Below are positions 10,551-64,000 of a stretch of DNA of 64,000 bases, piece after piece. This DNA is from an uncultured bacterium. Lineage in GTDB: Bacteria; Chlamydiota; Chlamydiia; Chlamydiales; SM23-39. Positions within the stretch are counted from its first letter, which is position 1; every line of letters begins with the position of its first letter. The translations under genes and the position numbers were made by a program. The stretch lies in assembly GCA_963716985.1 (NCBI GenBank), contig OY970323.1:2001280-2065279 (forward strand), written 5' to 3'. The notes under the pieces were generated by a model. It did not search any database, was not told where the DNA came from, and saw nothing but the letters and a program-made list of their open reading frames with translations.

Positions 10551-11016
10551 AAAACCTCGTTTTTGAAAAGGAACTTCTCTAGTTAGAATCGTTATCACGA
10601 CTTTTTACGTTTTTTTCTCTAACCGAGAATTCCTTACTGTTAACATAAAAATTGATAGAGAGATCCACCTTGCGCATGCTGTTTTGGTTCTTAACGACGA
10701 ATGGCAGGAATCTAAAAACTCGCTATCGGCAAATATTCTAGCAATACTGCTTCCTTTTTTTCAGAATTTTTTAAATTCCGGATGAAAAAATCTTAACACA
10801 TCAGGTTGACTCCCTCGTTTCCACCTGCGAGAGAACTTCCTGCTTAACATTGGGTGCAAAGAAACTTTGCAATGAATTGGGATTCTCTAAACATCAAAAA
10901 TCCACGCCTCAACTAACGACAACACAGCAAGAAAAAGAACCTGGAAATTCTCGTGGGTGTCGAAACTGATTTTCATCTTCAGCGTATATCTTTCTACTTG
11001 TTAGGTACCATTTCGG

Positions 11017-16339: not shown

Positions 16340-16571
16340 AGCCCGAATTGGAAAAAGAACAATTTGTAACTTCTTGAACCAATCGAATGGTATCACCGCC
16401 TTTTCCACATCCAAGGCACTTGAAAAGATTTGTTCTGGGATCAAAAGAAAGGCTTGCGGTCGCACTGTCGTGGCCTCCGTAGCACATGGCCTTATTTCAA
16501 TTCCAAGGGATTTCGCAAGCTCCACTATAGGGAAGGGCCTTCGCTCTTGCTATTCGTTCTTTGTCGATCAT
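16340..16571 (-). pseudogene. Frameshifted remnant of CHC2 zinc-finger (DNA primase N-terminal) protein
   Basis: Three frames join to MIDKERIARAKALP/IVELAKSLGIEIR/MCYGGHDSATASLSFDPRTNLFKCLGCGKGGDTIRLVQEVTNCSF; the ATG overlaps the Fic stop (ATGA). Confidence 0.75.
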
Positions 16572-19996: not shown

Positions 19997-22900
19997 TCAA
20001 TCCTTCAAATGGCCTTTCCTTTTCCATAAGAAAAACTTAGGCTTCAGATTTTTCGGAACTTTTTTAACTTTTACCGATAGCAATGGCTGGCGGCTATACA
20101 TCGGCACGCGTTTTTTGATATATGTGTCATCCAAGAAGAAGGGCAAGAAAAAGAAATCGCTTGCCAGGTTAAAAGAAGAGGAATCAAATCCTGGGACGGC
20201 AAATGGGAAGGAAACCGTTACAACCACCGGAGGCACCGGTGGAGGAGGGTTGACGCGGCAATCGTGAAGAATCGTCCCGTTCCAAATGAGAATACAGGGC
20301 ACGTTAGAGGGCAGATCGTGAGCCGTATTATCTCCTGATATTCCACTAAAAGTGGCCAAGAAATGGGCCCCTCCATAGACAAACCCGGTGGTTTGCACAT
20401 TAATGGGACTAGAAAAGCTTCCCACATCGCCGGTGAGCGCATTGAATGTTTCGTTGTTTGTCGCTTGGATGAGAGGAGTTACGCCGGTTCCATTTTCAAT
20501 CGATCCTATAGCCTGGAAATTGGGATTGAGCACAGTGATCGGACCTAGAATAATAATATTTCCTGCAACAATAATTAAATTGTTGATCGGGTCCATGGTA
20601 TTCATCAATGCAGTCCCGCTGCCGGTGTTGATCGACACCTCTTCAAGTGTAAAACCTACAGTGCCAATGATCTGTTGATAGGAAAAAGATCCTCCATTGG
20701 TTTGTACGCGAACATCGCTATTGGCCGAAAGAAACGTCGCTCCCGTTGGAAATGCAATGGGCGTGCCATAGGAGGTAAATTGGATGATCTGTCCCGTATT
20801 GACATTGGTCTGGTTTGCTGCAGAGTAGGACTGGTTATTGGCGGAGTAAACCGTATTGTTAATATTAATATCATGACTTGCCTGTATGCTCATTGCTCCC
20901 AATACAGTGGTACTGCTCGATCCAACTCCATTCAAATTCACATCATGAGCATTTGTCACGGAGAAATTTTGCATACTTTGACTTAAGGCAAGAGGATGGT
21001 TGATCGTGACATCCCCAACGCCTGCATCAATCGTAAATGAGTAAGGACCATTCACTTCTTGATCGATGAGGACATTTCCTCCATGAGAGTCGAGCTGAAG
21101 ATTTCCATTCAGAGTCGTATCGGAGGCCAAAGAGATCTGCTGGTTATTCGTAGAAATGGTTCCTCCAAGCGTGTTTAACCCACCTCCAGTTTGCGCAAAA
21201 GTTCCGTCGACCGAGAATGTGATGGCAGGATTGAAAGTCAAGAGCGTTGCATTGTTAATCGTAACGGTCCCTCCGCTTGTGGTCGTTACGTTGCTGTTGA
21301 AAAGGAATTGAGATCCGCTTAACCCAATGGATCCTGCAATGTTCAGAGCTCCGTTGAAAGTAGCAAGCGTTGCCAGATTCGACATGCTCAAGGAGTTGGC
21401 TTTAATTCCGAGCGACGTGAAATTATTTGCACTTCCGATTGTTACCGCATTTAAAGTCGTATTTCCGCCAATAGCTCCGTTGAGGTGGATATCTCCTAAC
21501 CCTGCGATCAGATCCAAATTCTCTGTTCCGGCAAGTCCGTTCACCGTTTGGCTTAGGGTAATTCCGGCAGTTCCAAGGCTCGTGTCGAATATTGTCAATC
21601 CAACGAGTATGAGCGGACTTACGAAGGAGATCGATCCGTGATGCGTGGTATAGGCTCCTGCAGCATAAAGAAACGGGGCCGTTCCGAGCTGCGTATAAGA
21701 GCCGTCAATATCCGTCACATTTGTGGCCACTCCGGTGATGAGCCCGGATACCGTGACGATGAGAGAGCCCAAGTTGGTTGTCGTGATCGCTGCATACCTA
21801 GCAAAGTTCGTTCCCGTCAAATTGATTCCCGCAGCTCCGTTTGTGTTGATCGTTGCCGTTAAAATAGGAGTTCCAATGGTCGTAGTGCCGCTGCCTTGCA
21901 GCTCTGCAATCGACGTTGCAGTTACATTATTTACTTGAGCGTTATATACACTATGAAGGGTGAGCGCACCCACACGGCTCACTCCCCCGATGGCACCGCC
22001 GATCGTTAGGTTTGCCGTAGAAGCGGTTCCTAACGTTAGATCCAAAGAAAAAGGACCGTCGACCGTGTTTAGAGAAATGGCCCCATTGCCGGCAGAAGAG
22101 TCCAGGGAAGCCGCAGCTGTGAGTGTGAGGGCGGAGTCGAATGTAATGCTAGCAAGTGCCGGTGTTGCATTGCTTGCCGCCACATTTCCTGCCAGAGAAA
22201 CATTTCCTGCGCCATTTTGTAAAAAGGCGCCGTTCGAAGTGATCGTCTTGCCCGCGGTGGTTGTGAATAGGCCGCTATTGGTGATCGTAATCGGACCTGT
22301 GCCGGTGGTCGTGACGTTGTCTAAAAAGCTAACTGTTGCTGCCGTTAAACTGATGCCGGATGCTCCGTTTGTATTGATGGCTGCGTTGAATGTGCTGCTG
22401 CTCGTTCCGGTCAATGCAATAGAAGCCGCTGTGATAGCTTGTGTGCTGACAGCTGCATTATTGACAATCGTCAAAGCGCCGAGCCTAGCAATTCCCCCGG
22501 TCGCTTGATGGAAGGTTAAGTTCCCCGTATTGGTATTGAGAGACAGATTTCCGGGGCCGTCGACCGTATTAGAGAAGTCCAGAGCATTCGAACTGGTATT
22601 CAACACCCCTGTGCCCACAGCGGAAAGGGGGCCTAAAAACTGCATGGCTCCGGTGGAGGTGATCGAAGAGGAGAGAATGACAGCGCCGGCGCCCGTTTGG
22701 GAAAAGGCCAATAGATTCGAGCCGTTAGCTCCTGCGTTAAAGGTCAGAGTGCCGGAGTTGTGAATGGTTACGTTAGCAGCTCCATGGGTTGTAAACGTAC
22801 CGTCCAAAGTAAATGCGCTTCCCGTCAAAGAAATCCCCGAAGCGCCGTTGGTATCAAGAGCGCCAATAAAATGGGTAAGGCCGCTTCCTGCCAATTGTGA

Positions 22901-25900
22901 AATCGACGATGCGGTGACAGCCTGCTGGGCCGTTACATTACCGGCCGTCTGTATAGTGATTGCGCCAAGACGGGCGCCGCTTCCTATATTGCCGGAGACC
23001 GTAATAGCACCGGTGCCGGAGGTCATGTCAAAGTCAAATCCCCCATCGACCGTGTTCAGAGAAATGGCCCCATTGCCGGTCGAGCTATCTAGTTTTGCCG
23101 CTGCAGTGAGCGTGATGCCGGAGCTAACGTTAGAGCCAAAGGTAATACTAGCCAAAGATGCGGTCGCATTGGTGGTCATGACAGTTCCTGCCAGAGAAAC
23201 ATTGCCAGATCCATTTTGTAAAAAGACGCCATTCGAAGTGATCGTCTTGCCCGCAGTGGTTGTGAGTAGGCCGCTATTGGTGATCGTGATCGGACCATTT
23301 GAGGTTGTTGTGACGTTGTCTAAAAAGCTAATTGTTGCTGCCGTTAAATTAATACCGGAGGATCCGTTTACATTTAGGGCTCCGTTGAATGTGCTATTGC
23401 TGCTTCCCGTAAGAGCAATAGAAGAAGCGGAGATGCCTTGCGCGGAGAGCGTTCCCGAACAGCTCATCGTTAGTGCATTCAACAAGCTGCAGGAGGCGGC
23501 CAGGGTCAGATTGCTAATGCCGGAAGCAGTAAGAGATAGGCTTCCGGGCCCATTGACCGTACTGTTTAATGTGATGCCACCGCCGGTCAATGAACCTAGG
23601 CCAAGCAACGGAACGACGACAGGCCCTTGAAATTGCATTGTGCTTGTGGCCGTAATCGAAGATGGGAGAGTTGTAGTCGCAGAGCCGACCGTTTGCGAGA
23701 AAGTAGAAAGCGCTGTGCCAATTGCACCTGCTTGAAAGGTCAAAGATCCCAAGTTATTGATGGTAACGCTATTATTGTTCGTTGTGAAGGGAGCGCCAAA
23801 AGTAAAGACACTTCCGGTAAGAGAAAGGGCGCCATTGGTGGTCAGAGCTCCATTAAAAGCAGTGGTGCCCGAGCCGTTGGACTGCGTCAGGGTAGAACCG
23901 GTCGTAACAGCTGCATTGGCAGTGGCGTTTTTGACATTTGTAATCAGGATCGCCCCAAGAACAGAAGATCCTCCGACAACATCTCCAAAGTTCAAAGAAC
24001 CTAGAGTGCCAAGGTTCAAACTCAAAGCTCCTGGACCATCTAAAGTGCTAGAGAAAGTGATGTTCTGCCCGCTTGCAGATGTGTCCAGAGAAGTTGGGTT
24101 CGAAAGAGAGGTGGGACTTGCAAAGGAGATAGCACCTCCGGCAGTCATCGATCCGGCTAAGGAAACAGAAGAGCTGACGCCACCGCTCGTTTGCGTACAT
24201 GCGCCTGCAATCGAATAGGTGGTTCCGCTCAGCGTCAAAAGACCCGAATTGGTCACGATCAGCGGTCCGGTATTTATTGTCGACACATTATTGTTCAGGG
24301 CAAATGCAGATCCGGTAAGATTGATACCGGAAGAGTTGGTCGTCGAAACAGCTCCGTCAAAAGTAGTCGTTCCGCTGCCGGCGCTTTGTGTAATCGAGGA
24401 TGCGCTCATATTTCCAAAAGCATGAAGATCTTGTACAGAAACAATGGTAAGGTTGCCAAGAGAATTAGTGGCACCTACATTGCCGGTAAGTATAATATTT
24501 TGATTACCGGCAGTCATCGAAACATCATTGGCTCCCGGACTATCCAGAGTGCTATGAAAAGTAATCAGCCCTCCGGTTAAGTTTTTAGAATTCAACACAA
24601 GAGGTCCATTGAGAGAAACAGCGCTCGTAAAATAAATGGGCTGATCCGTAGTTGTGATCGAACCTCCTACAAGCACACTACCGGGACCTATTTGGAGAAA
24701 TCCATTTGTTCCATTAATTGCAATCGAGGTTCCGTTTGCAATCGTAAGAGAGCCCGAATGGGCCAGATTCATACCTCCGCCGCTTGCCGCAATGGATCCG
24801 GTAAGATTGATTGTGACAGTATCTAGATCGAGTCCATATCCAAAAGAATCTGCCCCTGTTGCCGTAAGACCTGATTGAAAGTAAGTGGTCCCCGTTCCGG
24901 GACCCGTTTGCTGAAAGTAGCCCAAATCCGCAGTATTATCAACATGCACATTGCGTGCACTCAGAATAATAATGGCAGCTAAAGGAATCGTGTTTCCAAT
25001 TGGCCCAATGAAATACACGTCATGGCCGCAGGCATCGATGGTGAGCTTTCGTGGAGTCAGAATATTATCGCTATTCAAGGATTGGTTGAACGTGATATCG
25101 GCGCCTATGGGACAGGTAGAAAGGGTAATGTCATTGGTTAAAACAACGGAATTAGAAAAAGAAATGGGAACGCCTGAAGTGATGATATTGGTTCCCTGAT
25201 AAGTAATACTGCCGGTATTAATAATAATGGTCGTCGCATATACAGGACCAGTAACAGGAGGATTCACTGGAGGAACGGAAGTAAATGTGGCTATATTTAA
25301 GTTGTGGCCAACATCTCCGATCTGGCAATAGGTAATCGTCCCATTTTGCGCATCCAGGGTCAGATTTTGGCCCGGTCCGATCAGCCAGGGAATCGTAATC
25401 GCGCCTCCATTACTTTGAATCGTCAGGTTGGTCCCGGCATTCAACTCCATCTGTCCCGGGAAGGGCGCAGAGCAGGAACCATTAAAAGTAATTGCATTGC
25501 CACCGGAAGAAATGGTGGTTGTTGCTCCTGAATTAAAAAAGTAGCCTTCTGTAGGTAGTTGCCCAAGACCGGTATAATTTTGTGTGCTTGCCTTATAGAC
25601 CGTTCCCAGGAAGGTAATCGTGTTAGAAGCAGTTAGCGTAGTCGTCCCCGTAGCTCCCGCACCTGCAGATCCAAAATCGTGCCAAGAGATACTATCGCTC
25701 GTGATTGCAAAATTGTTAAAAGGGACGCTTCCGGCAATCACGTTGCCAAGCGTTACGCTCGTTGCATGACCGGTTGCCGTTGTAAGGGTCAGGCTTTTGC
25801 CTGACGTATTGGGATTCAGCGTTCCCGTAATGGAAATATTTCCAACGCCCGGAGTAGAGGTGATCGTGGTGATGGTCAAAGTCGACGTAGTGGTGACATT

Positions 25901-28900
25901 TCCGCCGGTCAAAGTAATATTGCTTCGATCCGTAGTAATATTGCCGCCAATGCTCATCGCTCCCGTTTCAAGGATCGCTCCCACCGTTTGCAATGTGCTC
26001 ATTTGAACAATATTGGCGCCCGTTGCGGTCAAACTGCTCAAAGGATTGGTGTTTCCGACTGTTCCATCGAATTGTATGCTTCCGCTTCCTGCTGTCAACG
26101 TAAGGGCTTGCGCGCCATTCAAGGTGCTAGAGAATGTGACGTTCTGGTTTGCGGCAGAGGTGTCCAGAGAAGTTGTGTTCGAAAGAGAGACGGGGCTTGC
26201 AAAAGAGATGGCCCCTCCGGCAGTCATTGCTCCGCTCAAAGAAACAGAAGGACTGCCGCCGCCGCTCGTTTGGGTGCATGCGCCTGCAATCGAATAGGTG
26301 GTTCCGCTCAGCGTCAAAAGGCCCGAATTGATCACAACCAGCGGTCCGCTGCTTGTTGTCGTGACATTGTTCAGCGTAAATGCAGATCCGGTAAGATGGA
26401 TCCCCGTAAGCGTGCTCGTTGATAGAGCTCCATTATAGGTTCCGCTTCCGGCATTTTGTGTCAAAGAAGCTGCTGTAATGGCAGCCGCAGTGACATTTCC
26501 GCTTTGTACCGTCACATCGATCAGAGGGATCGTTCCCCCGATCGCTCCTAGACCTATGCTTCCGACGCCGGCAGTGAGCGTTAAATCATAGCCTCCATTT
26601 ACGGTGGAAGAGAGGGTGATCGTATTGCCGCCCGAATTGAGCGCCACGCCATTGGTCAGGGTGATGGGAGATGCAAATGATAACAGTCCCACCGTAGAGA
26701 TCGGAGCTCCGAGAGAAACGGCAGAACCGCCGCCGCCGCTTGTTTGGGTAAAGCTGCTGCTCGATGTAATGGTAGAGCCAACAGGAATGGTAAGCGTTCC
26801 ACTATTAGTAATGGCAATCGGACCTAAATTGGTCGTTGTGATCGTGTTGTTCACATTAATGGTATTGCCGTTCACGCTAATGCCATCTGCCGTTGTGGTT
26901 GAGATCGTACCATCAAAAGTAGTGGTTCCCGTTGAGGCAAGGGTCAAAGGCCCTGCAATGGCCATACTGCCAAAAGAATGGATGTTATTGGCGCTGGACA
27001 CCTCAAGCTTTGTAGGAGGTGCTAGAAGGCCAACGGCCCCATTAAGATTTACATTGCCGGCACCGGCGGTGAGCGTCAAATCAAAAGCTCCGTCCACAGC
27101 TGCCAAATCGATATCTCCGCCGCCGCTATTTAAAGTCGTTGCATCCATTAAGGTGATCGGAGAGGCAAAGCTGATCAGAGCATTGTTTGTCGTAATGCTA
27201 GCGTCCAAATGGACGGCTCCCGTTCCATTTTGCTGGAAAGATCCTGCAAGATTGAAGGGACCGGCATTGACAAGCGTCAAAGTGCCGCTATTGGTAATCG
27301 TAACGGACCCTCCGCTTGTGGTCGTTACGCTGCTATTGAAAAGGAATTGAGATCCGCTCAAAGCAATCGGTCCTGCAATGTTCAAAGCTCCATTGAACGT
27401 AGCAAGCATTGCAAGGTTCGACATGCTCAAGGAGTTGGCTTTAATTCCGAGCGACGTGAAATTATTTGCACTTCCGATTGTTACCGCATTTACATTCTTT
27501 GTCCCGCCAATAGCTCCGTTGAGGTGGATATCTCCTCCCCCTGCGATCAGATCCAAATTTTCTGTTCCGGCAAGTCCGTTCACCGTTTGGCTTAGGGTAA
27601 TTCCGGCAGTTCCAAGGCTCGTATCGAATATTGTCAATCCAACCAGTACGAGCGGACTTACGAAGGAGATCGATCCATGGTGCGTGATATAGGATCCCGC
27701 AGCATAAAGAAACGGGGCCGTTCCGAGCTGTGTGTAAGAGCCGTCAATATTTGTTGTGTTCGTCGCCACTCCGGTGATGAGCCCGGATACCGTGACGATG
27801 AGCGAGCCCAAGTTGGTTGTCGTGATCGCTGCATATCGGACAAAGTTCGTTCCTGTCAAATTGATTCCCGCAGCTCCGTTTGTGTTGATCGTTGCCGTTA
27901 AAATAGGAGTTCCAATGGTCGTAGTGCCGCTGCCTTGCAGCTCTGCAATCGACGTTGCAGTTACATTATTTACTTGAGCGTTATATACACTATGAAGGGT
28001 GAGCGCACCCACACGGCTCACTCCCCCGATGGCACCGCCGATCGTTAGGTTTGCCGTAGAAGCGGTTCCTAACGTTAGATCCAAAGAAAAAGGACCGTCG
28101 ACCGTGTTTAGAGAAATGGCCCCATTGCCGGCAGAAGAGTCCAGGGAAGCCGCAGCTGTGAGTGTGAGGGCGGAGTCGAATGTAATGCTAGCAAGCGCCG
28201 GTGTTGCATTGCTTGCCGCCACATTTCCTGCCAGAGAAACATTGCCCGCTCCGTTTTGTAAAAAGGCGCCGTTCGAAGTGATCGTCTTGCCCGCGGTGGT
28301 TGTGAATAGGCCGCTATTGGTGATCGTAATCGGACCTGTGCCGGTGGTCGTGACGTTGTCTAAAAAGCTAACTGTTGCTGCCGTTAAACTGATGCCGGAT
28401 GCTCCGTTTGTATTGATGGCTGCGTTGAATGTGCTGCTGCTCGTTCCGGTCAATGCAATAGAAGCCGCTGTGATAGCTTGTGTGCTGACAGCTGCATTAT
28501 TGACAATCGTCAAAGCGCCGAGCCTAGCAATTCCCCCGGTCGCTTGATGGAAGGTTAAGTTCCCCGTATTGGTATTGAGAGACAGATTTCCGGGGCCGTC
28601 GACCGTATTAGAGAAGTCCAGAGCATTCGAACTGGTATTCAACACCCCTGTGCCCACAGCGGAAAGGGGGCCTAAAAACTGCATGGCTCCGGTGGAGGTG
28701 ATCGAAGAGGAGAGAATGACAGCGCCGGCGCCCGTTTGGGAAAAGGCCAATAGATTCGAGCCGTTAGCTCCTGCGTTAAAGGTCAGAGTGCCGGAGTTGT
28801 GAATGGTCACGTTGCCGGCACCGGTGGTAGTAAACGTACCATCCAAAGTAAATGCGCTTCCCGTCAAAGAAATCCCCGAAGCGCCGTTGGTATTAAGAGC

Positions 28901-40377: not shown

Positions 40378-40470
40378 AACCTGATTCTACAAAGTTCACT
40401 TTTTTTTAAAAGCTAATTTTCAAAATTTTTGAAAAAAGGCGCTTCCTGTGCCATAAGAAAAACTTACGCT

Positions 40471-58400: not shown

Positions 58401-61400
58401 CGTTGATAATAATGGTATTCGCGACAATCGTGCCGAGGTGCAAAATCCCACCCGTAATCTCGACTAAGTTAAACTCCCCTGCTGTTGCGGTGCCGATATT
58501 GCCAGTCTGCACTGTGCCCGTGCCGGCATTCAGAATCAGCGTGCTCAAAGCGTTTGTCGTGGCATCGACACTAGGAACGGTAATATTGCCATTGGAGGAA
58601 TTCATCGTCAGGGCGGTTCCGGAAGAGAGGTCAATCGTTCCTGATGGAACGTTCAGCGCCTGGCCGTTAGAAGTAAAAGTTGTCAATGCTCCTGAGTTCA
58701 TATTGAACGTTGTGCCCGCAGTATACGTTTGAGCATTGGCATTATAGGTCTGGCCATTGAAATTAATGGCGCCTGTAGAATTGAGGGAAGTTGAGCCACT
58801 GACACCCGCGGTGGAAACGATGCCAATATTGGAAAGCGTGATTGCGCTTCCTGACAGAGAAAGAGCGCTTAATGGCGTCGCCGCGCCAATGGCGCCGGAG
58901 ATTGTCACTGATCCTGACCCAGCCGTCAGAGTGAGCGTTTCAGCTCCATTGACCGTACTGGAAAAGCTGATCGTCGCCCCGCCGTAACCTCCGCCATGTG
59001 TGCTGTCCATCAATACGGAAGAGCTCAGGACAACCGGTCCGGTCATCGTGATGGTACTGCCGTTCGTGATTATATTGCCTTCGATATCAATCGGCGAACC
59101 TGTGTAGCTCACTGCTCCAGTCGTAGCTGCTGTTGAATTCTGGGTAACCGTTGATCCGCCGTTAGCGCTTAGAGAAGCAAGAGGAGTGCTTGCTCCGACT
59201 GCACCTCCCAGCATAATCGTACCCGCCGTACCGCTCGTCAACCCAAGCGCAAAGGCACCGTTGATTGTCGTCGAACTTCCTGAGAAATTGATATTGGATC
59301 CAGCTGCCGTTCCTCCGCTATTCGTTGTATCGATCGCCACTCCGGCTGCCAATGTGACCGGGCCCGTCATCGTCACCGTGCCGCTTGTAGCCGTGCTCGT
59401 AGTGATGTTGCCGCCCAGGCTGATGCCAGTGCCTGAATAACTCACCGCGCCCGTTGTTTTAACGGTCGAACTTTGCGTTAATGTGGTTCCACTGTTTGCG
59501 GAGAGAGAAGCAAGAGGCGTACTGGCCCCGACTGCGCCTCCTAGCGTAATCGTTCCGCTCGTTCCGCCCGTCAACCCAAGCGCAAAGGCACCGTTGATTG
59601 TCGTCGAGCTTCCTGAGAAATTGATATTGGATCCAGCTGTTGTTCCTCCGCCATTCGTCGTATCGATTACCACACCGGCTGCCAATGTGATAGGTCCTGT
59701 CATCGTCACCGTGCCGCTTGTAGCCGTGCTCGTAGTGATGTTGCCGCCCAGGCTGATGCCGTTACCTGTGTAGCTAATAGCGCCCGTCGTTTTAACGGTC
59801 GAGCTTTGCGTTAATGTGGTTCCACTGTTTGCGGTTAGCGAAGCTATAGACGTACTTCCCCCAACTGCGCCTCCCAATGTAATCGTCCCCGCCGTGCCGC
59901 CCGTCAACCCAAGCGCAAAGGCGCCGTTGATTGTCGTCGAACTTCCTGAGAAATTGATATTGGACCCTGCTGCGGTTCCTCCGCCATTCGTCGTGTCGAT
60001 GGCGACTCCGGCTGCCAATGTGACCGGGCCCGTCATCGTCACCGTGCCGCTTGTAGCCGTGCTCGTAGTGATGTTGCCGCCCAGGCTGATGCCGTTACCT
60101 GTGTAGCTAATAGCGCCCGTCGTTTTAACGGTCGAGCTTTGCGTTAATGTGGTTCCACTGTTTGCGGTTAGCGAAGCTATAGACGTACTTCCCCCAACTG
60201 CGCCTCCCAATGTAATCGTCCCCGCCGTGCCGCCCGTCAACCCAAGCGCAAAGGCGCCGTTGATTGTCGTCGAACTTCCTGAGAAATTGATATTGGACCC
60301 TGCTGCGGTTCCTCCGCCATTCGTCGTGTCGATGGCGACTCCGGCTGCCAATGTGACCGGGCCCGTCATCGTCACCGTGCCGCTTGTAGCCGTGCTCGTA
60401 GTGATGTTGCCGCCCAGGCTGATGCCGTTACCTGTGTAGCTAATAGCGCCCGTCGTTTTAACGGTCGAGCTTTGCGTTAATGTGGTTCCACTGTTTGCGG
60501 TTAGCGAAGCTATAGACGTACTTCCCCCAACTGCGCCTCCCAATGTAATCGTCCCCGCCGTTCCGCCCGTCAACCCAAGCGCAAAGGCGCCGTTGATCGT
60601 CGTCGAGCTTCCTGAGAAATTGATATTGGATCCAGCTGCCGTTCCCCCGCCATTCGTCGTGTCGATGGCGACTCCGGCTGCCAATGTGACCGGGCCCGTC
60701 ATCGTCACCGTGCCGGTGGCTGCTGTACTCGTAGTGATGTTGCCGCCCAGGCTGATACCAGTGCCTGTGTAACTAATAGCGCCCGTCGTTTTAACGGTCG
60801 AACTCTGGGTCACTGTGGTTCCACTGTTAGCGGTTAGCGAAGCGATCGGCGTGATTCCTCCGACTGCGCCTCCCAATGTAATCGTCCCCGCCGTGCCGCC
60901 CGTCAACCCAAGCGCAAAGGCGCCGTTGATCGTAGTCGAACTTCCTGAGAAATTAATATTGGATCCGGCTGCCGTTCCTCCGCCATTCGTTGTGTCGATG
61001 GCAACTCCGGCTGCCAATGTGACTGGGCCCGTCATCGTCACCGTGCCGCTTGTAGCCGTGCTCGTGGTGATGTTGCCGCCCAGGCTGATGCCGTTGCCCG
61101 TGTAGCTAATAGCGCCCGTCGTTTTAACGGTCGAACTCTGGGTCACTGTGGTTCCACTGTTTGCGGTTAGCGAAGCGATCGGTATGATTCCTCCGACTGC
61201 GCCTCCCAATGTAATCGTCCCCGCCGTGCCGCCCGTCAACCCAAGCGCAAAGGCGCCGTTGATTGTCGTCGAACTTCCTGAGAAATTGATATTGGATCCA
61301 GCTGCGGTTCCCCCGCCATTTGTCGTATCGATGGCGACTCCCGCTGCCAATGTGACCGGACCCGTCATCGTCACCGTGCCGCTGGTCGCTGTACTCGTAG

Positions 61401-63999
61401 TGATGTTGCCGCCCAGGCTGATACCAGTGCCTGAATAGCTCACCGCACCCGTCGTTTTAACGGTCGAACTCTGGGTCACTGTTGATGCTGCGCTCGTAGC
61501 GCTCAAAGAAGTAATAGCAGTCGTTGCACCAACTGCACCGCCAAAGGTGATCGTCCCCGCACCCGCCGTCGTAACGGTCAAATTGCGCGTATTGGCCGTT
61601 CCATCCGAATCGATCGTTGCATTAAAGGCCGCGCTGAAACCTGATGAGGGGCTAATCGTCACGCTGGTTGCAGTCGCAGTCGGAGAATTGTTTAACAAAA
61701 CAGCGCGGCCGGCCGGAAAGGAAATGCTGCTATTCGTCGTCGTAACCGCAATGGTATTTTGTAGCTGGATCTGCCCGGTGGTCGCTGAGAAGTTCAAAGT
61801 CCCAATCGAGATCGTGCCTCTTAATACGGTGATTCCCGTCGTTGTATTGGTCAACGTGGCAATACTGCTGGTTGCCGCTCCATTGATGGGGCCCACTGTG
61901 ATCGTGCCTGTTCCGGAGCTGGCTGTGAACGTCGAGGCGGCAGGGACTTGGATTGTGCCGGTTGTAAAAGTCAAGGCATTGTTATTGGTTGTAAATGTCG
62001 TGACTCCCGAGCTCAATTGGAAATTGGTCGCAGCGGTGTATGTTTGGGCATTGGCGTTATAAGTTAAGCCATTGAAATTAATGGCGCCTAAACTCGTGAG
62101 TGCGGTAGCACCCGAAACACCCGCAGATGCACCGCCAATACTATTGATATTGATCGTGGCGCTCGTGGCGCTCAAAGAAGTAATAGCAGTCGTTGCACCA
62201 ACTGCACCGCCAAAGGTGATCGTCCCCGCACCCGCCGTCGTAACGGTCAAATTGCGCGTATTGGCCGTTCCATCCGAATCGATCGTTGAATTAAAAGTCG
62301 CGCTGAAACCTGATGAGGGGCTAATCGTCACGCTAGTTGCAGTCGCAGCCGGAGAATTGTTTAACAAAACAGCGCGGCCGGCCGGGAAGGAAATACTGCT
62401 ATTCGTCGTCGTAACTGAAATGGTATTTTGTAGCTGGATCTGCCCGGTGGTCGCTGAAAAGTTCAAAGTCCCAATCGAGATCGTGCCTCTTAATACGGTG
62501 ATTCCCGTCGTTGTATTGGTCAACGTGGCAATACTGCTGGTTGCCGCTCCATTGATGGGGCCCACTGTGATCGTGCCTGTTCCGGAGCTGGCTGTGAACG
62601 TCGAGGCGGCAGGGACTTGGATTGTGCCGGTTGTAAAAGTCAAGGCATTGTTATTGGTTGTAAATGTCGTGACTCCCGAGCTCAATTGAAAATTGGTCGC
62701 GGCGGTGTATGTTTGGGCATTGGCGTTATAAGTTAAGCCATTGAAATTAATGGCGCCTAAACTCGTGAGTGCGGTAGCACCCGAAACACCCGCAGATGCA
62801 CCGCCAATACTATTGATATTGATTGTTGCAGCGTTGGTTACAGTCAGGGTGGAGAGCGGCGTCGTGCCTCCAGCTACGCCTCCCAGAGTCACCGTCCCTC
62901 CCGTTCCTCCATTCAACCCAAGCGCAAAGGCGCCGTTGATTGTCGTCGTACCTCCCGAGAAATTGATATTGGACCCGGCTGCTGTTCCTCCGCCATTTGT
63001 CGTATCGATCACCACACCAGCTGCCAATGTGACCGGGCCCGTCATCGTCACCGTGCCGGTGGCCGCTGTACTCGTGGTGATGTTGCCGCCCAGGCTGATG
63101 CCGTTGCCCGTGTAGCTCACTGCGCCCGTTGTTTTAACGCTCGAACTTTGCGTTAATGTGGTTCCGCTGTTTGCGGTTAGCGAAGCGATCGGCGTGATTC
63201 CTCCGACTGCTCCTCCTAGCGTAATCGTCCCCGCCGTGCCGCTCGTCAATCCAAGCGCAAAGGCGCCGTTGATCGTCGTCGAAGATCCTGAGAAATTGAT
63301 ATTGGACCCTGCTGCCGTTCCTCCGCCATTCGTCGTATCGATCGCCACACCGGCTGCCAATGTGACCGGGCCGGTCATCGTCACCGTACCGCTTGTAGCC
63401 GTGCTCGTAGTGATGTTGCCGCCCAGGCTGATGCCGTTGCCCGTGTAGCTCACTGCACCCGTTGTTTTAACGCTCGAACTTTGCGTTAATGTGGTTCCAC
63501 TGTTTGCGGTGAGAGAAGCGATCGGTATGATTCCTCCGACTGCGCCTCCCAATGTAATCGTCCCCGCCGTGCCGCCCGTCAACCCAAGCGCAAAGGCGCC
63601 GTTGATCGTAGTCGAAGATCCCGAGAAATTGATATTGGATCCGGCTGCCGTTCCTCCGCCATTTGTCGTGTCGATGGCGACTCCCGCTGCCAATGTGATA
63701 GGTCCTGTCATCGTTACCGTGCCGCTGGTCGCTGTACTCGTAGTGATGTTGCCGCCCAGGCTGATACCAGTGCCTGAATAGCTCACCGCACCCGTCGTTT
63801 TAACGGTCGAACTCTGGGTCACTGTTGATGCTGCGCTCGTAGCGCTCAAAGAAGTAATAGCAGTCGTTGCACCAACTGCACCGCCAAAGGTGATCGTCGC
63901 CGCACCCGCCGTCGTAACGGTCAAATTGCGCGTATTGGCCGTTCCATCCGAATCGATCGTTGAATTAAAAGTCGCGCTGAAACCTGATGAGGGGCTAAT
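40471..63999 (-). CDS. Giant TpsA-like passenger, >7,840 aa, 5' end outside window
   Basis: Open frame continues to the window edge (the 63924 'start' is a mid-repeat TTG); same repeat modules and same C-terminal cassette as tpsA2; the TPS domain itself is not visible. Confidence 0.85.
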   Translation of the reverse strand: MSPSSGFSATFNSTIDSDGTANTRNLTVTTAGAATITFGGAVGATTAITSLSATSAASTVTQSSTVKTTGAVSYSGTGISLGGNITTSTATSGTVTMTGPITLAAGVAIDTTNGGGTAAGSNINFSGSSTTINGAFALGLTGGTAGTITLGGAVGGIIPIASLTANSGTTLTQSSSVKTTGAVSYTGNGISLGGNITTSTATSGTVTMTGPVTLAAGVAIDTTNGGGTAAGSNINFSGSSTTINGAFALGLTSGTAGTITLGGAVGGITPIASLTANSGTTLTQSSSVKTTGAVSYTGNGISLGGNITTSTAATGTVTMTGPVTLAAGVVIDTTNGGGTAAGSNINFSGGTTTINGAFALGLNGGTGGTVTLGGVAGGTTPLSTLTVTNAATININSIGGASAGVSGATALTSLGAINFNGLTYNANAQTYTAATNFQLSSGVTTFTTNNNALTFTTGTIQVPAASTFTASSGTGTITVGPINGAATSSIATLTNTTTGITVLRGTISIGTLNFSATTGQIQLQNTISVTTTNSSISFPAGRAVLLNNSPAATATSVTISPSSGFSATFNSTIDSDGTANTRNLTVTTAGAGTITFGGAVGATTAITSLSATSATININSIGGASAGVSGATALTSLGAINFNGLTYNANAQTYTAATNFQLSSGVTTFTTNNNALTFTTGTIQVPAASTFTASSGTGTITVGPINGAATSSIATLTNTTTGITVLRGTISIGTLNFSATTGQIQLQNTIAVTTTNSSISFPAGRAVLLNNSPTATATSVTISPSSGFSAAFNATIDSDGTANTRNLTVTTAGAGTITFGGAVGATTAITSLSATSAASTVTQSSTVKTTGAVSYSGTGISLGGNITTSTATSGTVTMTGPVTLAAGVAIDTTNGGGTAAGSNINFSGSSTTINGAFALGLTGGTAGTITLGGAVGGIIPIASLTANSGTTVTQSSTVKTTGAISYTGNGISLGGNITTSTATSGTVTMTGPVTLAAGVAIDTTNGGGTAAGSNINFSGSSTTINGAFALGLTGGTAGTITLGGAVGGITPIASLTANSGTTVTQSSTVKTTGAISYTGTGISLGGNITTSTAATGTVTMTGPVTLAAGVAIDTTNGGGTAAGSNINFSGSSTTINGAFALGLTGGTAGTITLGGAVGGSTSIASLTANSGTTLTQSSTVKTTGAISYTGNGISLGGNITTSTATSGTVTMTGPVTLAAGVAIDTTNGGGTAAGSNINFSGSSTTINGAFALGLTGGTAGTITLGGAVGGSTSIASLTANSGTTLTQSSTVKTTGAISYTGNGISLGGNITTSTATSGTVTMTGPVTLAAGVAIDTTNGGGTAAGSNINFSGSSTTINGAFALGLTGGTAGTITLGGAVGGSTSIASLTANSGTTLTQSSTVKTTGAISYTGNGISLGGNITTSTATSGTVTMTGPITLAAGVVIDTTNGGGTTAGSNINFSGSSTTINGAFALGLTGGTSGTITLGGAVGASTPLASLSANSGTTLTQSSTVKTTGAVSYSGTGISLGGNITTSTATSGTVTMTGPVTLAAGVAIDTTNSGGTAAGSNINFSGSSTTINGAFALGLTSGTAGTIMLGGAVGASTPLASLSANGGSTVTQNSTAATTGAVSYTGSPIDIEGNIITNGSTITMTGPVVLSSSVLMDSTHGGGYGGATISFSSTVNGAETLTLTAGSGSVTISGAIGAATPLSALSLSGSAITLSNIGIVSTAGVSGSTSLNSTGAINFNGQTYNANAQTYTAGTTFNMNSGALTTFTSNGQALNVPSGTIDLSSGTALTMNSSNGNITVPSVDATTNALSTLILNAGTGTVQTGNIGTATAGEFNLVEITGGILHLGTIVANTIIINGSTTIYINGNITTNNTAITFSLPVILTNNVTISTGSPGASISFLSTLDGDIANTRSLILTAGTGTITFTGAVGSNESLASLSATGANISQSSSVATFGAVIYSGSTLIDLDGNITTGGGNIQMFGPVALSASIALSSGPDTGNITFSSTVNGTGAGGQNLSLSADLGNISFSGAVGGTKRLGTMTVNTANNFTANALTLGAFSQLAGTGITSFNGAVDINTAAGLSITNTNTTFNSTVNTTSGGIVSVSVGGTLILTSSAAFTLTGAFTESGAGAVQSAGSITTTGQSIQFGSAVALTGATALSTGTGANIIFVNTLDGPGDLSLTAGTGSISFDMAVGSLTRLGALTINSVAAVNALGVRAASINQTVAATGASTYSGDINTNAAGGVNLWGTSFSINGNLITTTGGPFTITNSALLTLVAGSSTSLAGAFTQSGGGAVSFSGTILTANAAIYFTNPITLAGAATFNAGTGTGAITFHSTIDGTAPYTQTLILSTGSTGNINLVGDIGDTTPLSDLSINQAGTVSTQAITASSITQLVGGATTTFSGDITTHTVGGISLTGTAFAFSGNATTTTGSGPLAVSGALSFAPSKTYNIGGAVSQTGGAVSLAGQITASGAIAGTGISIAGAITLGGTATLSTAAASHSIVLSSTLDGANNLTLAAGGGNITIGDIAGSVARLGNLIFSSALNISTQAITAARIQQVAGTGTTTLGALNTNGASGINLALTNLSINGSIITTSGGGFTVLNSGTVTLVSPITTSVSGAFEQNGAAGSVNLLGTITTINQLIQFTSPITLTGDTVLNSGSSAGDISLTTVTGAYALTLSAGTGDITTNNIGAAPLTGVTFTSAHNITTGAISAGSITQTAGSGTSIFNGVLSTTTAGGITLTGTSFQFPHSVTTTGTGAFNINNSSLATFGPGVTFTIDGNFSQTNSGAVFLGANITTAHGAIAFASAATLNGATVLDSSLDNGNITFSSTLDGTQTISMTAGGGDVSVNGAIGTIAPLSSLTVTSANNISLGNVGTGGSAGVTGAASLPATTNLNFNGTNYNFNSTTISGATANFKAGALTTVITNGNPITFAVSPTTIELSSSTNLTINSAGGAITLGAVHAVANNLRTLTLNAVAGPIQVGQIGSSNNGEFSSVSFTCGTLTITGNLYSNAFTLSPSVQIFLGGSMTTVNTSLTFPVPVVVNNIPTATISTGATGANIIFSSTIDGDASLTRNLILAAGSGSITLTGAIGGTNPLASLAISSANIVTAHAITVGALSQNSGTGTTTFNGAINTSNVSGITLTGSAFTFNNTVTTTTGGGVQVANSGNLTMPAGSTFTLSGPFSQTGSGSVLMGNTITSGDEVLFTSAVTLTHAISISTAAASKQIHFIGTIDSGVGGPFDMTLNAGTGGNIYVDKDIGSISALGNVLIVFAQNITVQAITAYSATLTGGTGTLILNGNALVGAGGINITGNNFISNGNVTTTNGGNITYNNSGTSTAMVGGIVVTCSGNLSQIGTGPLFLSNLITVGGNVLITGPVSIASPTTIDVSAGTGSITMLNTVDGAYSLTLKSGGGAVTFDQPVGSGIPIGALSISGANGLTTQSIQAASITQTTSTGKTWFKGAIATSGAIAITTTGDIERDAAITTTAGSLTITNGGTFISTSAGNISLGGALLQNGAGSVSLAGSVATTNANITFNRPITLYGSTQINSGTGTGNIDLKQTVQGAFALTLSSGAGNITLENQVGTVGTPLAGLTFASANLVSTQVIYSTFITQSTATAVTGATTFNGALYATGGSGISLTGTAFTFDNPIASAGPLTIMNSGLVTYISAATGNISGALTEMGTGSTLLSSSITAGGAVQFEEPVVVSGIGSIDTSAANRNITFANTIDGPGNLSGSLTLSSGTNDITIAGAVGSIHSLGSLTISTVGNLTTQAVTASSLTQSASSLTGTSLFNGSISTSGSGGIHLTGSAFTFLQNVTTTGSGPISINNSGTLTTTAGKTISSGDIFTQNGSGSVQLGCSIVTTNATAGHGDIHFTGTSSITLIAPISIDSSIGGGTIQFSAASTVDGYEPITLNAGSTGNIVVLGDFGGTTPLGAFTITNANDVTVQAITADSITQSASSLTGTSYVLGSLATSAPAGLTLIGNNFTVGPLATSITTTNGGSFTVTNQGLISGSGPTLTTVSGAFIQNGPGPVVLGGPLTANEGISCTGPVIFGLDSTLDSSGGNGDIVFSNTVDGYAGTENVTLTAGGGNITFSQAVGGSTPLNVLTFQSAHNITASSSITVGSIAAGTPFTGTAAFSGAVATSASSGIALTGNAITFNNNVATTGGGAVSLTNTGLLTIANGSVFSINGAITQSGAGSVSLGGSITTTNAQLLTDAMTFASAITLTAAVSLDSHAGVGDNNIVLNGAVDGSMTLDVTAGLGNVTLNSTMGHTAPLTSLTIHSAATILVGANASISGPFTITSATGPSTFNGTLSASAISINGAAINFNHAVSATSGAIGITNSGTLTIASSAPITSSTTFSQTGAGSVSLGSNITASGTIGIPSLEIASPITLTNGVILNSGGGDLTLSSAVGGAYALTLTVGAGDLTLSGNLGTLLAPLGICTITNVHDASIQAIYASSITQQNGSGTSTLYGNLYTNTIGGITLIGHNFVSSGTVTTESGSNGSLTITNSGLLTGTGASTVTLDGAFIQNGTGPVNVGGTIETNHANISHASAISVLLPSTFTSHGGNVIFSSTVNGPASLTIAASTGNVTFNGIVGGSSPLGFLTISSAGTIFQNYSLSATGAVADTATTIHLNGNITTNASDITLTGNVIVGAALALSTSGGSGNISITGSTDGDVAGRDFTIQTATGNITLQGVGASTSFHNLTFSANNISTGNLGLGATGTASLTATTDINFTGTSYNNGTQNYSAGGNFNFNNGSATTVSSNIRNITFTTGTIHLSNDLTIDSNGGTIRMTNLLGTGKNFTVDADVGDYYFTQLGSNSSFLNNVSLTAGSNAQFHPYPVNFPNPGTNVYASGSFTVQTTASVTLSGNYSISGQTYTTPVAISGAVTFTCGAGGTVTFNRTVDANTAGVDTLSFDFDPCNGSVVFNAPVGSIAPLASLSINAPTDVTVASTMDVGSFAVTNGVGTTAFASGLTSTALGGVSITTPTINLSGAFSTGNNGPFVLDNSGVLTIAAGSGFNISGAFQQTGAGSVQIGGTVITNNAAIEFTGPVTLDGDISFDSAVSTGGDVSFASTIQGAHNLSITAGSSNISFGGAVGTVGTPLTGIQIVSGDVTASAPIYAQTITQLAGAASFNALTVNGGSGINLTGSAFTFNNAVTTSGSLLVHNSGLLTFHNAAYSIGGSLTQTGAGSTQIAGTFSPVGAISFAQGVELIGTTSFDTHTTNQNILFSADLTNDNAGAHDLSLNPGTGNITFSGAVGTISFPIGALAITQAGNVTAGVIVASSITQSAGSGTTTISGNMTTNQAGGISLAGTNFTINSTVITTGLGPFSITNSGPLSLTLGGLTSISDAFTQSGGGAVSLSGALAAAQGISFANAITLAGNTALSTSNLDITLSSTVNGHYSFGLGGARDVIFGANLGGTTPLGALTITTVRNITYPLVNADSIAQSASTGTTTITGPMTTTGALGISISGGAINQNGAITTSAGSAGPVTFINTGLLTIGIGVATNAAGAYTQSGVGGTVHLGGSINATENQIHFTGATTLTADVSLNAGPASSTSAVITFDSTIQGAHALTLSAPGGTITLSGDVGTLGTLLTGFTITNAQTVSTQGIYSAFINQNSGIGTTTFNGALRTNGSGISLLGTSFTFNNTFTTTGVGSVTINNSGPTIFAVGATGSIAGSFTQTGTGGTTQLSSSITAGGAIQLHGALCVPTSATGSLSTSAANQPITLFSTVDGPGNLTLSSGTNDITIAGAAGSIHSLGSLTISTVGNLTTQAVTASSLTQSASSLTGTSLFNGSISTSGSGGIHLTGSAFTFLQNVTTTGSGPISINNSGTLTTTADKTISSGDIFTQNGSGSVQLGCAIVTTNATAGHGDIHFTGTSSITLIAPISIDSSIGGGTIQFSAASTVDGYEPITLNAGSTGNIVVLGDFGGTTPLGAFTITNANDVTVQAITADSITQSASSLTGTSYVLGSLATSAPAGLTLIGNNFTVGSLATSITTTNGGSFTVTNQGLISGSGPTLTTVSGAFIQNGPGPVVLGGPLTANEGISCTGPVIFGLDGTLDSSGGNGDIVFSNTVDGNAGTENVTLTAGVGDITFSQAVGAGSFPGTTWVGSLTASGSTISIADVGTALAVGVSGATTLTASGGINFTGTIYNANTQTYTITSANTFDMNAGALTTFSSHVHAIAFVGVNGLLLGTGTDLTMNTSGANISLGPINAHTGDHRHLVLDAGVGSIQIGDLGTSGAGKFASASFTGTNLTLGNAFADAFTFTYTGTLYAAGNIVSTDTALSFPSIGVGAVVLSANSTISTYGVVGADITFSGTVDGVVDDAFGLTLNSGSGSIDFKQNVGVGHRLASLVIDAALNMTLEPAATMIVDSLYQFSGFGTTAFEGALVVPTDFGISLTGNNFAFYNFVETLNNGPLSVINSGTLTFAGSGSISGGFTQTGSGPSPSVALSGSITAGQPILISSSTILSGTTTLDTSAANQPITFQSAVNGSGNITFLAGGGDINLEADAGLSSRLGTITIRSSHNVTGQSVSASAVNMSTTLGGSASSGTATVNGVLNTNGAAGITLVGTNFVLNGSITTTNGGNFVLTNSGLVTDYAINSVSVNGSYTQNGTGPVNFAGSLTTTATSVGAGTISFTSPITLLAGGSFDSSSSHSDITFSSTIQGPGSLSVSSGSGVSGGDILFNQNIGATTAIGAITIPTAHNVTMQTVNAASLTQSAGSGTTMINGNVTTHTSTGINLTGTNIIRGANWTTSSAGPISVNNSGTFTSTASGTIVSSGPFNQSGSGSVQISGSVTTSNASIDFHGAMTIDGNMVLNSGSGTGAITVHNTVDGDIAGRTLTLTSGNGDISFLAGVGSSTRLGIVTVTNANNVTFNGLKTTSFVQQSGAVTGTTTLNGTTNTSAGGGIQINANAITLNNTVQTTANGPIILTNGGLLTINAACTLSDGSLARFTQNGLGSSVLTGSVTSDGPIFFSKGVAVSSSPFLTASSQAITLSSTLNGPGNLTLNSGAADIVITGAAGSSSRLGDLIFTNANNITASSIRAASIIQSAGAGTTTMAGDLNTTGNINLSGAAFVLNGSDITTLGSFTIAHTAPSTLIFGASTSISGSFTESGSGAISLEGTLITNNENITFNNALSLTHATTINSNGGTILIVSTITGNQALVLASGSGNTTVSAGITGVHSLTIQSANNASLQAVLAGCFVQSQGGGLTTFNGALTTTLNNGINLTGSQFTFNAPVATLNGGPVQITNSGLLTIATGAPFNITGNFTQLNSGNVSLADNFTTAGNSILFTGAVVLGHNVSLDTGATVGNITFIRAVSGSHNLTLNTGFGAIALDQNAGTLGVLQVNSAGTFNALAITAGSISLSGISTSATISGDLNTSLAAGITMSGVAFNVLGNVTTLTSGPFTITNSGPLVLGTNFNFSIDGAFLQNGSGHVSGGGTLATNNHPVEFQSLLTLTGDLSITSGSANAAVAEVDGPYNLAVAAGSGDAIFNGFIGNHVALQNVTVSSAHDINLMGVGSVATGVTGTFNLTASHNIIFGNTVYNANTQIYSAANEFTFNTGSQTNLTSFGGPIAFTNGTIHLGAFNDLQVITNNGSFSFVSLLGTTFENIIISTGTGTAALNTIASGGTINNLMVTAGNITISGSIDPINTHLVSLKDILNTAGSELIICNNTPIFDAQGGNVGSLSSPLLVHSANQIIVGGGPGLSLADLDGFSIDHTVQWLLADPPCKIIFNGVVIKNCTIPPTPPPVVVTVSFPFAVPGFDSSSFNLASDFFFLPFFLEDIYIKKRVPIYYRQPLPSITVKEVPEKI
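45632..46713. repeat. Internal duplication in tpsA1, copy 1 (copy 2 at about 51665-52746)
   Basis: Offset 6,033 bp; near-identical ~1.08 kb. Confidence 0.85.
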
Positions 64000-64000
64000 C
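59150..64000. repeat. Tandem module array in tpsA1: 7x333 bp, 2x669 bp, 3x333 bp, partial 669 bp
   Basis: Antisense ORF starts at 59483, 59816, 60149, 60482, 60815 and 61148 (step 333), 62072/62741 (step 669) and 63158/63491. Confidence 0.9.

Follow-up and report, generated by a model that had tools for sequence, protein, structure and literature searches.

A stretch of 64,000 nucleotides from the genome of an uncultured bacterium (contig OY970323.1, positions 2001280-2065279; hereafter the window) carries a type Vb, or two-partner secretion (TPS), locus with two giant TpsA genes and one TpsB transporter gene. We consider it probable that the single TpsB exports both giant TpsA proteins into C-terminally tethered surface fibers that act as adhesins or in host capture. 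The genome is one contig of 2,067,739 bp, rated 99.5% complete, and the giants occupy about 2.4% of its 2.07 Mb. In the list of open reading frames (ORFs), all three tps genes are on the minus strand and are transcribed in the order tpsA1, tpsB, tpsA2. The tpsA2 gene (A2; 19997-38695) encodes a complete giant TpsA of 6,232 residues (610 kDa) from a TTG start. The tpsB gene (38692-40377), the sole intact tpsB at the locus, encodes an Omp85-type TpsB transporter of 561 residues from an ATG start, and its stop overlaps the A2 start by 4 nt. The tpsA1 gene (A1) occupies 40471-63999 and beyond: its last 7,842 codons and stop lie in the window, where the frame is still open at the edge, and a spacer of 93 nt separates its stop from the tpsB start. 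Thus, tpsA and tpsB are tightly spaced on one strand, which is the gene linkage expected of a TPS operon. The original prediction, made from the letters of the window and a list of its ORFs, described two uninterrupted giant ORFs flanking one TpsB; we found the same three ORFs and matched TPS and ShlB/POTRA_2 domains in them.

The giant frames are not chance ORFs, because a stop-free run of 6,232 codons would arise by chance (61/64 per codon) with odds of about 1e-130. Numerous plus-strand ORFs of 150-347 residues are found inside both giants. In our judgment, they look like antisense by-products of a coding strand rich in Gly, Thr, Ser, and Ala codons.

The tpsB product matches the Pfam families ShlB (4.2e-16) and POTRA_2 (5.9e-16), and its profile searched against the PDB sequences gave CdiB as the best match (1.3e-15), followed by FhaC (1.2e-6). 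A VRG(Y/F) motif in loop 6 is a hallmark of Omp85-type TpsB proteins. The protein has TVRGF at residues 451-455, with T451, R453, and G454 invariant among 15 homologues. On the passenger side, both giants begin, as judged by eye, with basic residues, a hydrophobic stretch, and then SLWS or SLWA; in A2, this is a probable Sec signal peptide at residues 1-19 (38639-38695, minus strand), ending in SLWS. It is followed by an N-terminal secretion region (residues 18-428; 37412-38644, minus strand) that includes the TPS domain and the NPxG turn. The TPS domain was matched at residues 46-247 (window 37955-38560) by PF05860 (1e-29), and the NCBIfam model TIGR01901 for the NPxG hemagglutinin N-terminal domain also matched (1.4e-20). 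When the N-terminal 450 residues of A2 were compared with the PDB, EtpA (1.5e-75, residues 18-428), HMW1 (6e-33), and HxuA (8.3e-20) were the only proteins matched (5 sequences, E <= 0.001). These matches place the A2 TPS domain in the EtpA/HMW1/HxuA class, i.e., the second TPS-domain family, and together with the CdiB and FhaC matches of TpsB they bear out the prediction of a two-partner secretion locus.

The A1 frame stays open to the last base of the contig, 820 codons beyond the window and 8,662 codons in total. On this strand, the beginning of the contig holds an open frame of 796 codons that runs off base 1 and carries a TPS domain (PF05860, 6.6e-32); read from the TTG aligned with the A2 start, this head has 781 codons. 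Head and body are probably one A1 gene across the circular junction, encoding at least 9,443 residues and at least about 915 kDa (79.5 plus 835.6 kDa). The probable TPS domain of tpsA1, which the original prediction had proposed to look for upstream, was thus found at the contig start, and over about 190 residues it shares 91-92% identity with the TPS region of A2.

Two conventional TPS loci lie elsewhere in the genome, at contig positions 247639-253940 and 438390-443364, both in the order tpsA-tpsB. Their TpsA proteins have 1,526 and 1,087 residues and their TpsB proteins 579 and 573 residues. The conventional TpsA proteins have TPS regions only 30-36% identical to those of the giants. Since the TPS domains of the two giants are near-identical and the conventional ones so distant, the simplest reading, which we infer here, is that the two giant passengers share the single TpsB pore. 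That two passengers use one pore had been suggested as a possibility, and besides the TPS identity a degraded tpsB upstream of A1 points the same way.

This degraded tpsB is a 3' remnant of 254 nt (contig positions 2343-2594, minus strand) directly upstream of the A1 TTG start. The remnant shares 90% identity with the intact copy, an indel of 1 nt breaks its frame, and about 390 nt of unrelated sequence stands in for the rest of the gene. Upstream of it lies a Cpn60 gene. The closest relative, with a TpsB that shares 94% identity with the one described here, has an intact tpsB preceded by a Cpn60 that is 94% identical to this gene. From the Cpn60 match and the remnant, we concluded that the ancestral layout was Cpn60, tpsB, tpsA, which has become Cpn60, tpsB remnant, A1, tpsB, A2. 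The further tps genes that might lie upstream according to the original prediction come down to just this remnant.

We then analyzed the bodies of the two giants. Both are composed of 17-18% Thr, 13-15% Gly, 11-12% Ser, and 11% Ala, and no Pfam or NCBIfam model fits their repeats. In A2, a proximal zone (about residues 430-2600; 30896-37405, minus strand) consists of 109/111-residue units and cassettes of about 223 residues and includes a tandem array of 327 nt in 2.9 copies at 31210-32152. A distal zone (about residues 2600-5812; 21260-30895, minus strand) consists of diverged super-repeats of about 160-175 residues with turns of about 21 residues. The first approximately 2,400 residues of the A1 body form a similar proximal zone of 111-residue units and cassettes of about 223 residues. 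In A1, a tandem array at 59161-61470 (minus strand) has 6.9 copies of a 333-nt (111-residue) unit with 92% matches, a second array at 62877-63813 (minus strand) has 2.8 copies, and the autocorrelation of the A1 protein peaks at lags of 111 and 222. Each giant also holds an internal duplication. In A2, about 600 residues are repeated at 92-100% amino acid identity (27335-29137 versus 21257-23053), and in A1, about 200 residues are repeated at 99% identity (45626-46713 versus 51629-52776).

A profile of a shaft segment gave 0 matches to PDB sequences at E <= 1. The AlphaFold2 model of A2 residues 3030-3704 (19-row alignment) was all beta, with a predicted local distance difference test score (pLDDT) of 92.4 and a predicted template modeling score of 0.83. 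The best fold matches of this model were to the Vag8 passenger (Z 23.5; root mean square deviation [rmsd] of 4.1 over 348 aligned residues), to the secretion domain of HMW1 (Z 20.6; rmsd of 2.8 over 240), and to EtpA (Z 20.1; rmsd of 12.6 over 578). The shaft is thus modeled as an uninterrupted right-handed beta-helix. Long beta-helical passengers had been predicted, and both segment models (pLDDT 92.4 here and 77.6 for the C-terminal segment described below), whose best folds are TpsA or autotransporter helices, agree with that prediction. The canonical rise of a beta-helix is 0.48 nm per turn. At about 21-22 residues per turn, the fibers would be an estimated 140 nm long for A2 and at least 210 nm for A1. 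Scaling from HxuA, which has 96.3 kDa and is 120 Å long according to a passage of PMC5422565, would give estimates of about 75 nm and at least 115 nm.

The two giants share DNA unevenly along their lengths. At the DNA level, identity is 93-98% in their 5' ends and in cassettes of 0.6-2.2 kb; cassettes of this size recur both within and between the genes at 94-98% DNA identity, and residues 1200-2200 of A2 are 96-99% identical to A1 cassettes. Their C-terminal modules are just about 49-52% identical, and in a tree of 9 C-terminal module sequences, the partner of A1 is not A2 but a copy carried by another genome (support 90/98). Since the C-terminal modules are so diverged and A1 groups outside A2, the comparison indicates that A1 and A2 are not a recent whole-gene duplicate. 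The near-identical 5' ends and cassettes point to gene conversion.

The C-terminal module is the part of the giants that bears most directly on tethering. In A2, it comprises residues 5813-6232 (20000-21259, minus strand): the last beta-helix cassette, a cap, a cysteine pair, and a tail. The cysteines, C6134 and C6146, are 12 residues apart (20258-20296, minus strand), and the tail (residues 6151-6232; 20000-20245, minus strand) has a proline-rich stretch, the aromatic motif FPFAVPGFDSSxFNLASDxFF, and a basic end. The A1 module lies at 40474-41733 (minus strand), with its cysteine pair at 40681-40719. We aligned the last 420 residues of 9 giants from 6 genomes, which are 37-49% identical to A2. 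The cysteine pair (alignment positions C322 and C334) and the tail motif are invariant in all 9 sequences. The invariant features come in a fixed order, a PC...C pair, a PP-rich stretch, and FPFAVPGxDSSxFNLASDYFF, and are followed by a variable basic end; within the tail, F353, P356, G357, S361, F363-S367, F371, F375, and Y380 are invariant.

AlphaFold2 modeled the C-terminal 420 residues (pLDDT 77.6) as a beta-helix up to model residue 338, and residues 339-420 had a pLDDT of <50. The helix matched the folds of HMW1 (Z 20.4), Vag8 (Z 20.2), EtpA (Z 19.6), and HxuA (Z 17.9). A Foldseek search of the model against the PDB returned just generic beta-helices and none at E <= 0.001, and the best score of the 420 residues in the ESM Atlas was 0.78, below the usable level. 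Searched against 1.84 billion proteins, the 105-residue tail was matched by 56 representative clusters. The match falls at the very C-terminus in 54 of these, whose proteins reach 7,137 residues.

According to passages of PMC3983070, tethering of HMW1 requires the C-terminal 20 residues and the Cys1518-Cys1528 disulfide, and the C-terminus is not surface accessible. HxuA has the same anchor, with a disulfide loop that locks the C-terminus in the TpsB pore and a last 66 residues that are invisible in the crystal (passages of PMC5422565). Because the giants share with HMW1 and HxuA the TPS-domain class, an invariant cysteine pair, and a tail that does not fold alone, we favor C-terminal tethering. 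In the proposed mechanism, A1 and A2 would first be exported by Sec, and their near-identical TPS domains would dock on the POTRA domains of the single TpsB. Each chain would thread through the TpsB barrel and fold outside into a fiber. Export would halt at the C-terminal disulfide loop, with the proline-rich and aromatic tail held in the periplasm or in the pore, so that the C-terminus would tether the fiber in the manner of HMW1 and HxuA. In such a fiber, the N-proximal third with its near-identical cassette arrays would be farthest from the cell; the arrays appear to be exchanged between the genes and may vary fiber length or surface. The fiber would serve the extracellular stage as an adhesin or host-capture filament, and host adhesion seems the likeliest role for such a fiber in an obligate intracellular bacterium.

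The same tail could also be read differently. The giants may be released exoproteins that form an extracellular or inclusion-lumen matrix or act as ShlA/ExlA-like cytolysins, with the aromatic motif membrane active or self-associating. Many TpsA proteins are released or cytolytic, as stated in passages of PMC5422565; the aromatic-rich tail was unfolded alone in AlphaFold2, as would be a segment that folds on a partner or a membrane; and tpsB matches the ShlB Pfam family. We regard release as unlikely, though the most credible of the alternatives weighed here, for the TPS domain is of the EtpA/HMW1/HxuA class and not of the ShlA/HpmA/FHA class, no pore-forming or other Pfam domain was found in the giants outside their TPS domains, and the invariant cysteine pair with its tail at the extreme C-terminus fits the HMW1/HxuA anchor better.

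Scans of both giants with Pfam and NCBIfam found no toxin, pretoxin, or enzymatic domain, and a regular-expression search found no VENN motif in them. Weak Pfam rows for DUF4320 (2.2e-8, no stretch passing), LEA_2, and Ig_TMEM131L_3 were dismissed as compositional. The gene directly downstream of A2, where the locus ends, encodes a DDE transposase (DDE_Tnp_1; 17918-19741, minus strand; PF01609, 5.7e-15) and no immunity protein. These results agree with the prediction, which recognized neither a toxin or immunity cassette nor a VENN motif or an enzymatic domain. They also bear on a CdiA/FhaB-like delivery mechanism, in which the C-terminal part would be kept periplasmic until the tip binds and an effector would then be delivered into another cell. 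The great size, the long beta-helix, and the conserved C-terminal region after a proline-rich stretch would suit such a mechanism, and the FhaB prodomain is loosely similar to that conserved region. Polymorphic toxin domains are also listed in chlamydiae by Zhang et al. 2012 (in a passage of PMC3482391). Nonetheless, the giants have neither a VENN or pretoxin motif nor a Pfam or NCBIfam toxin domain; their C-terminus is conserved across families at 37-52% identity and is not polymorphic; the downstream gene is a transposase and not an immunity gene; and Fil_haemagg_2 repeats were not detected. Polymorphic toxin delivery is therefore disfavored, and we hold it to be the least probable of the alternatives.

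Several observations weigh against the tethered-fiber interpretation or limit it. The tethering model is drawn by analogy, and the cysteine pair of the giants lies about 86-98 residues from the end, whereas that of HMW1 is within the last 20. The C-terminal module profile gave 0 matches to PDB sequences at E <= 1, and the fiber lengths are estimates, roughly 100-200 nm. No HMW1C/EtpC-type GT41 gene (PF13844) was found in the 99.5%-complete genome, or in the window, with the same search matching 2 of 14 control genomes, and the N-x-S/T sequons (156 versus 147 +/- 11, and 221 versus 199 +/- 11.5) show no clear enrichment. The idea of an HMW1C/EtpC-type glycosylated adhesin was rejected on these two grounds. 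Among the 12 runs listed, no RNA run carried the locus.

The other points on this side concern the integrity of A1, which could be broken or could be two genes. A plain join of the contig ends puts the A1 frames 1 base out of register, and a search of the contig ends for direct overlap or repeat-consistent adjacency found neither. The first 240 nt of the A1 tail piece at the contig end are 98-100% identical to at least 6 other places, and one place in A2 matches the contig end exactly over 240 nt. The end of the head is similar to another repeat unit; in A2, several hundred bases lie between that unit and the matching position. Since the join is out of frame and the repeat positions are not neighbors, we concluded that the contig broke inside the A1 repeat array and that some sequence is missing.

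To check the assembly, we used short contigs that Logan provides for four metagenome runs on soil, peat, and sediment, made in two studies; one of the matching runs may be the source sample. Logan contigs span much of 32000-48000, many at 0 differences, with parts that have no contig cover, and one of them bridges the A1 stop and the tpsB start. Loose contig ends at 46713, 45626, and 36174 coincide exactly with the sequence that borders the second copy of each repeat, at 52747, 51629, and 31597. Since the flanks of both copies are seen in metagenome contigs, both copies of the internal duplications exist in the reads. The contig-end gap and the copy numbers in the zone of 94-100% identical cassettes are uncertain.

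These data also bear on the possibility that part of the locus is decaying or is an artefact of assembly, with inflated or misjoined genes and with A1 a pseudogene left without its own tpsB. For this speak the contig that ends inside A1 and joins out of frame, the near-identical cassettes within and between the genes, the exact match of the contig end to a place in A2 over 240 nt, and the remnant state of the tpsB upstream of A1. On the other side, frames of 6,232, 8,662, and 781 codons are free of stops, independent chlamydial assemblies hold single frames of 6,258-10,804 residues with the same ends, the distinct flanks of both duplication copies are carried at 0 differences by contigs of three to four metagenome runs, and the repeat copies are 94-98% and not 100% identical over most of their length. 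Artefact or decay is thus very improbable in our view, nearly as much so as toxin delivery. A repeat-induced misassembly had been named by the original prediction as what would overturn it; this concern stands in part, for the contig ends lie inside the A1 repeats and make the exact length and continuity of A1 provisional. The repeats also explain the usual fragmentation of these genes in short-read genome bins.

The tethered-fiber interpretation places the system in a chlamydial cell, and the host lineage was examined by sequence comparison. A search with TpsB returned 277 homologues at E <= 0.001, the best 120 of which are 55-67% identical, and the sources among the matches listed include Rhabdochlamydiaceae, Parachlamydiales, and Chlamydiales. 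The genome encodes three full TLC nucleotide transporters, which matched in 0 of 14 control genomes, and it shares its GTDB family with genomes titled Chlamydiae or Parachlamydiales. OmcB (PF03504), used as a chlamydial marker, matched neither this genome nor any of the controls and is therefore uninformative. The chlamydial affiliation of the source genome, which had been predicted, is well supported by the other comparisons. Three metagenome-assembled genomes (MAGs) titled "Verrucomicrobia bacterium" (SZAS-9, -12, and -1) each hold a unit of tpsB and giant tpsA and 3-4 full-length TLC transporters; their titles probably understate a chlamydial affiliation.

We found 27 related loci in species-representative genomes, with records that include Rhabdochlamydiaceae, Parachlamydiaceae, and "Chlamydiae bacterium." In 22 of the 27, tpsB is followed by an ORF whose first 430 residues are 44-84% identical to A2, and the remaining 5 loci either have no DNA downstream or are themselves partial. 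Of the 22 downstream ORFs, 20 extend past the 10 kb of DNA fetched, and the other two end after 2,857 and 1,515 residues. None of the 27 loci has a giant upstream of tpsB. In 9 relatives, there is no conserved accessory gene upstream of tpsB, where the neighbors are Cpn60, NamZ, GT4, M20 peptidase, P-type ATPase, amidase, or unknown. The C-terminal module was found in all 5 named chlamydial genomes, where it ends frames of 6,258, 6,581, 7,129, 7,459, and 9,966 residues, and in 18 of 103 genomes of the same family. Its profile matched in 69 of 400 genomes sampled from the phylum, in frames of up to 10,804 residues; all 69 carriers are labeled with the same genus, family, or order as the source genome, and the module was found in 0 of 23 and 0 of 29 genomes of two well-sampled families. 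These counts are floors, as fragmented MAGs probably lose such repeats. By these comparisons, the unit of tpsB and giant tpsA is conserved across one chlamydial order and widespread in environmental chlamydiae. In databases, 18 homologues of the giants go under the name "hypothetical protein" or under "filamentous hemagglutinin family protein."

A bolder form of the tethered-fiber interpretation is that these proteins are a phylum-specific appendage of a large uncultured chlamydial order, in which TpsB-anchored fibers of 0.6-1.1 MDa and about 100-200 nm would be the main host-capture organ, and two paralogues sharing one pore would swap N-proximal cassettes by gene conversion for antigenic or host-range variation. 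We put this forward tentatively, as a conjecture that is more doubtful than credible. TpsA proteins range from about 100 to 650 kDa according to a passage of a 2017 review (PMC5422565); A2, with 610 kDa, is at the top of this range, and A1 and the relatives of 9,000-10,800 residues exceed it. The system had been thought possibly undescribed, and our literature search, which covered open papers and left subscription journals and supplementary tables outside, found no description of giant chlamydial TpsAs, nor did passage searches of PMC6490308, PMC9723776, PMC2811131, and PMC3482391. If the giants do form surface fibers, they would be a target for cryo-electron tomography and for metaproteomics of environmental chlamydiae and would test how far TPS folding, a mechanism that is energy-free, can be scaled up. 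To find the family, the conserved C-terminal module can serve as a simple sequence marker. Studies of chlamydial attachment concentrate on cultured species, with their Pmp autotransporters, type III effectors, and OmcB, and we know of no study of TPS adhesins in this phylum.

The rest of the window lies downstream of A2. The transposase beside tpsA2 may be a rearrangement boundary, and a Fic/DOC-family protein with a Fic_N domain is encoded further downstream at 16568-17713 (minus strand). Other minus-strand genes are a Sel1-repeat protein (9000-10598), a 337-residue ORF with no Pfam match (11017-12030), a 323-residue ORF with only a marginal Glycos_transf_2 match (12096-13067), and a 623-residue protein with HAMP and SpoIIE (PP2C) phosphatase domains (2574-4445), which is similar to the sensor phosphatase of the RsbU type that acts in partner switching in chlamydiae.

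Among known chlamydial systems, the Pmps are beta-helical surface adhesins that are type Va autotransporters. Unlike them, the giants have no autotransporter barrel or Chlam_PMP repeats and use a separate TpsB pore. The source genome has 9 matches to the autotransporter beta-domain, in frames of 271-2,024 residues that are all outside the giants, and no match to the Chlam_PMP repeat was found anywhere in it. Thus the giants do not replace type Va autotransporters, and the matches point to a set of type Va proteins missed by the repeat model for Pmps. Rhabdochlamydia helvetica has a TPS operon of low similarity to huxA/huxB, the sole chlamydial TPS operon mentioned in the literature searched, and the passage of PMC6490308 that describes it mentions no giant passenger, unlike the present locus. 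The two conventional TPS loci of the source genome may be the counterparts of that operon.

CdiA and CdiB resemble the locus in that CdiA proteins are giant TpsAs too (180-650 kDa, in a passage of PMC5422565) and CdiB is the best solved match to the TpsB profile. Unlike CdiA, the giants have no VENN motif, polymorphic C-terminal toxin, or immunity gene, and their C-terminus is conserved across families. FhaB, with FhaC, forms a TPS adhesin of Bordetella that has a long beta-helix as the giants have. FhaB has a large C-terminal prodomain, and the tail after the helix in the giants is only about 85 residues. The FHA repeats (PF13332, Fil_haemagg_2) were found neither in all of A2 nor in the window part of A1. 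The C-terminal region of FhaB has a proline-rich stretch, as do the giants. It stays periplasmic and controls release (PMC4542190), and FhaB belongs to the other TPS-domain family, with an NPNL motif (PMC5422565).

EtpA of the enterotoxigenic E. coli EtpBAC system is the best sequence match of the A2 N-terminal 450 residues. In etpBAC, tpsB precedes tpsA, an order common to that system and the giants. The solved EtpA chain has 1,564 residues versus 6,232 to at least 9,443 for the giants, and EtpC has no counterpart in the source genome. To our knowledge, no flagella have been described in chlamydiae of this kind. EtpA is secreted and bridges flagella to host glycans (PMC5422565 and PMC10284417).

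HMW1 and HxuA are the systems on which the tethering model draws. Their TPS-domain class and beta-helical passenger are common with the giants, and in all of them a cysteine pair near the C-terminus is followed by a segment that does not fold alone. The giants exceed HMW1 in length by a factor of 4-7; in the passages of PMC3983070, the numbering of HMW1 stops close to residue 1,530. HMW1, like EtpA, needs a GT41 glycosyltransferase, and the source genome is without one. The giants also differ from HMW1 and HxuA in gene order, with tpsB before tpsA in the present locus, and in that their shaft repeats and C-terminal module have no sequence similarity to solved structures. We rate the machinery as familiar and as new the unmodeled repeats, the family-specific C-terminal module, the extreme size, and the presence of two passengers on what appears to be one pore.

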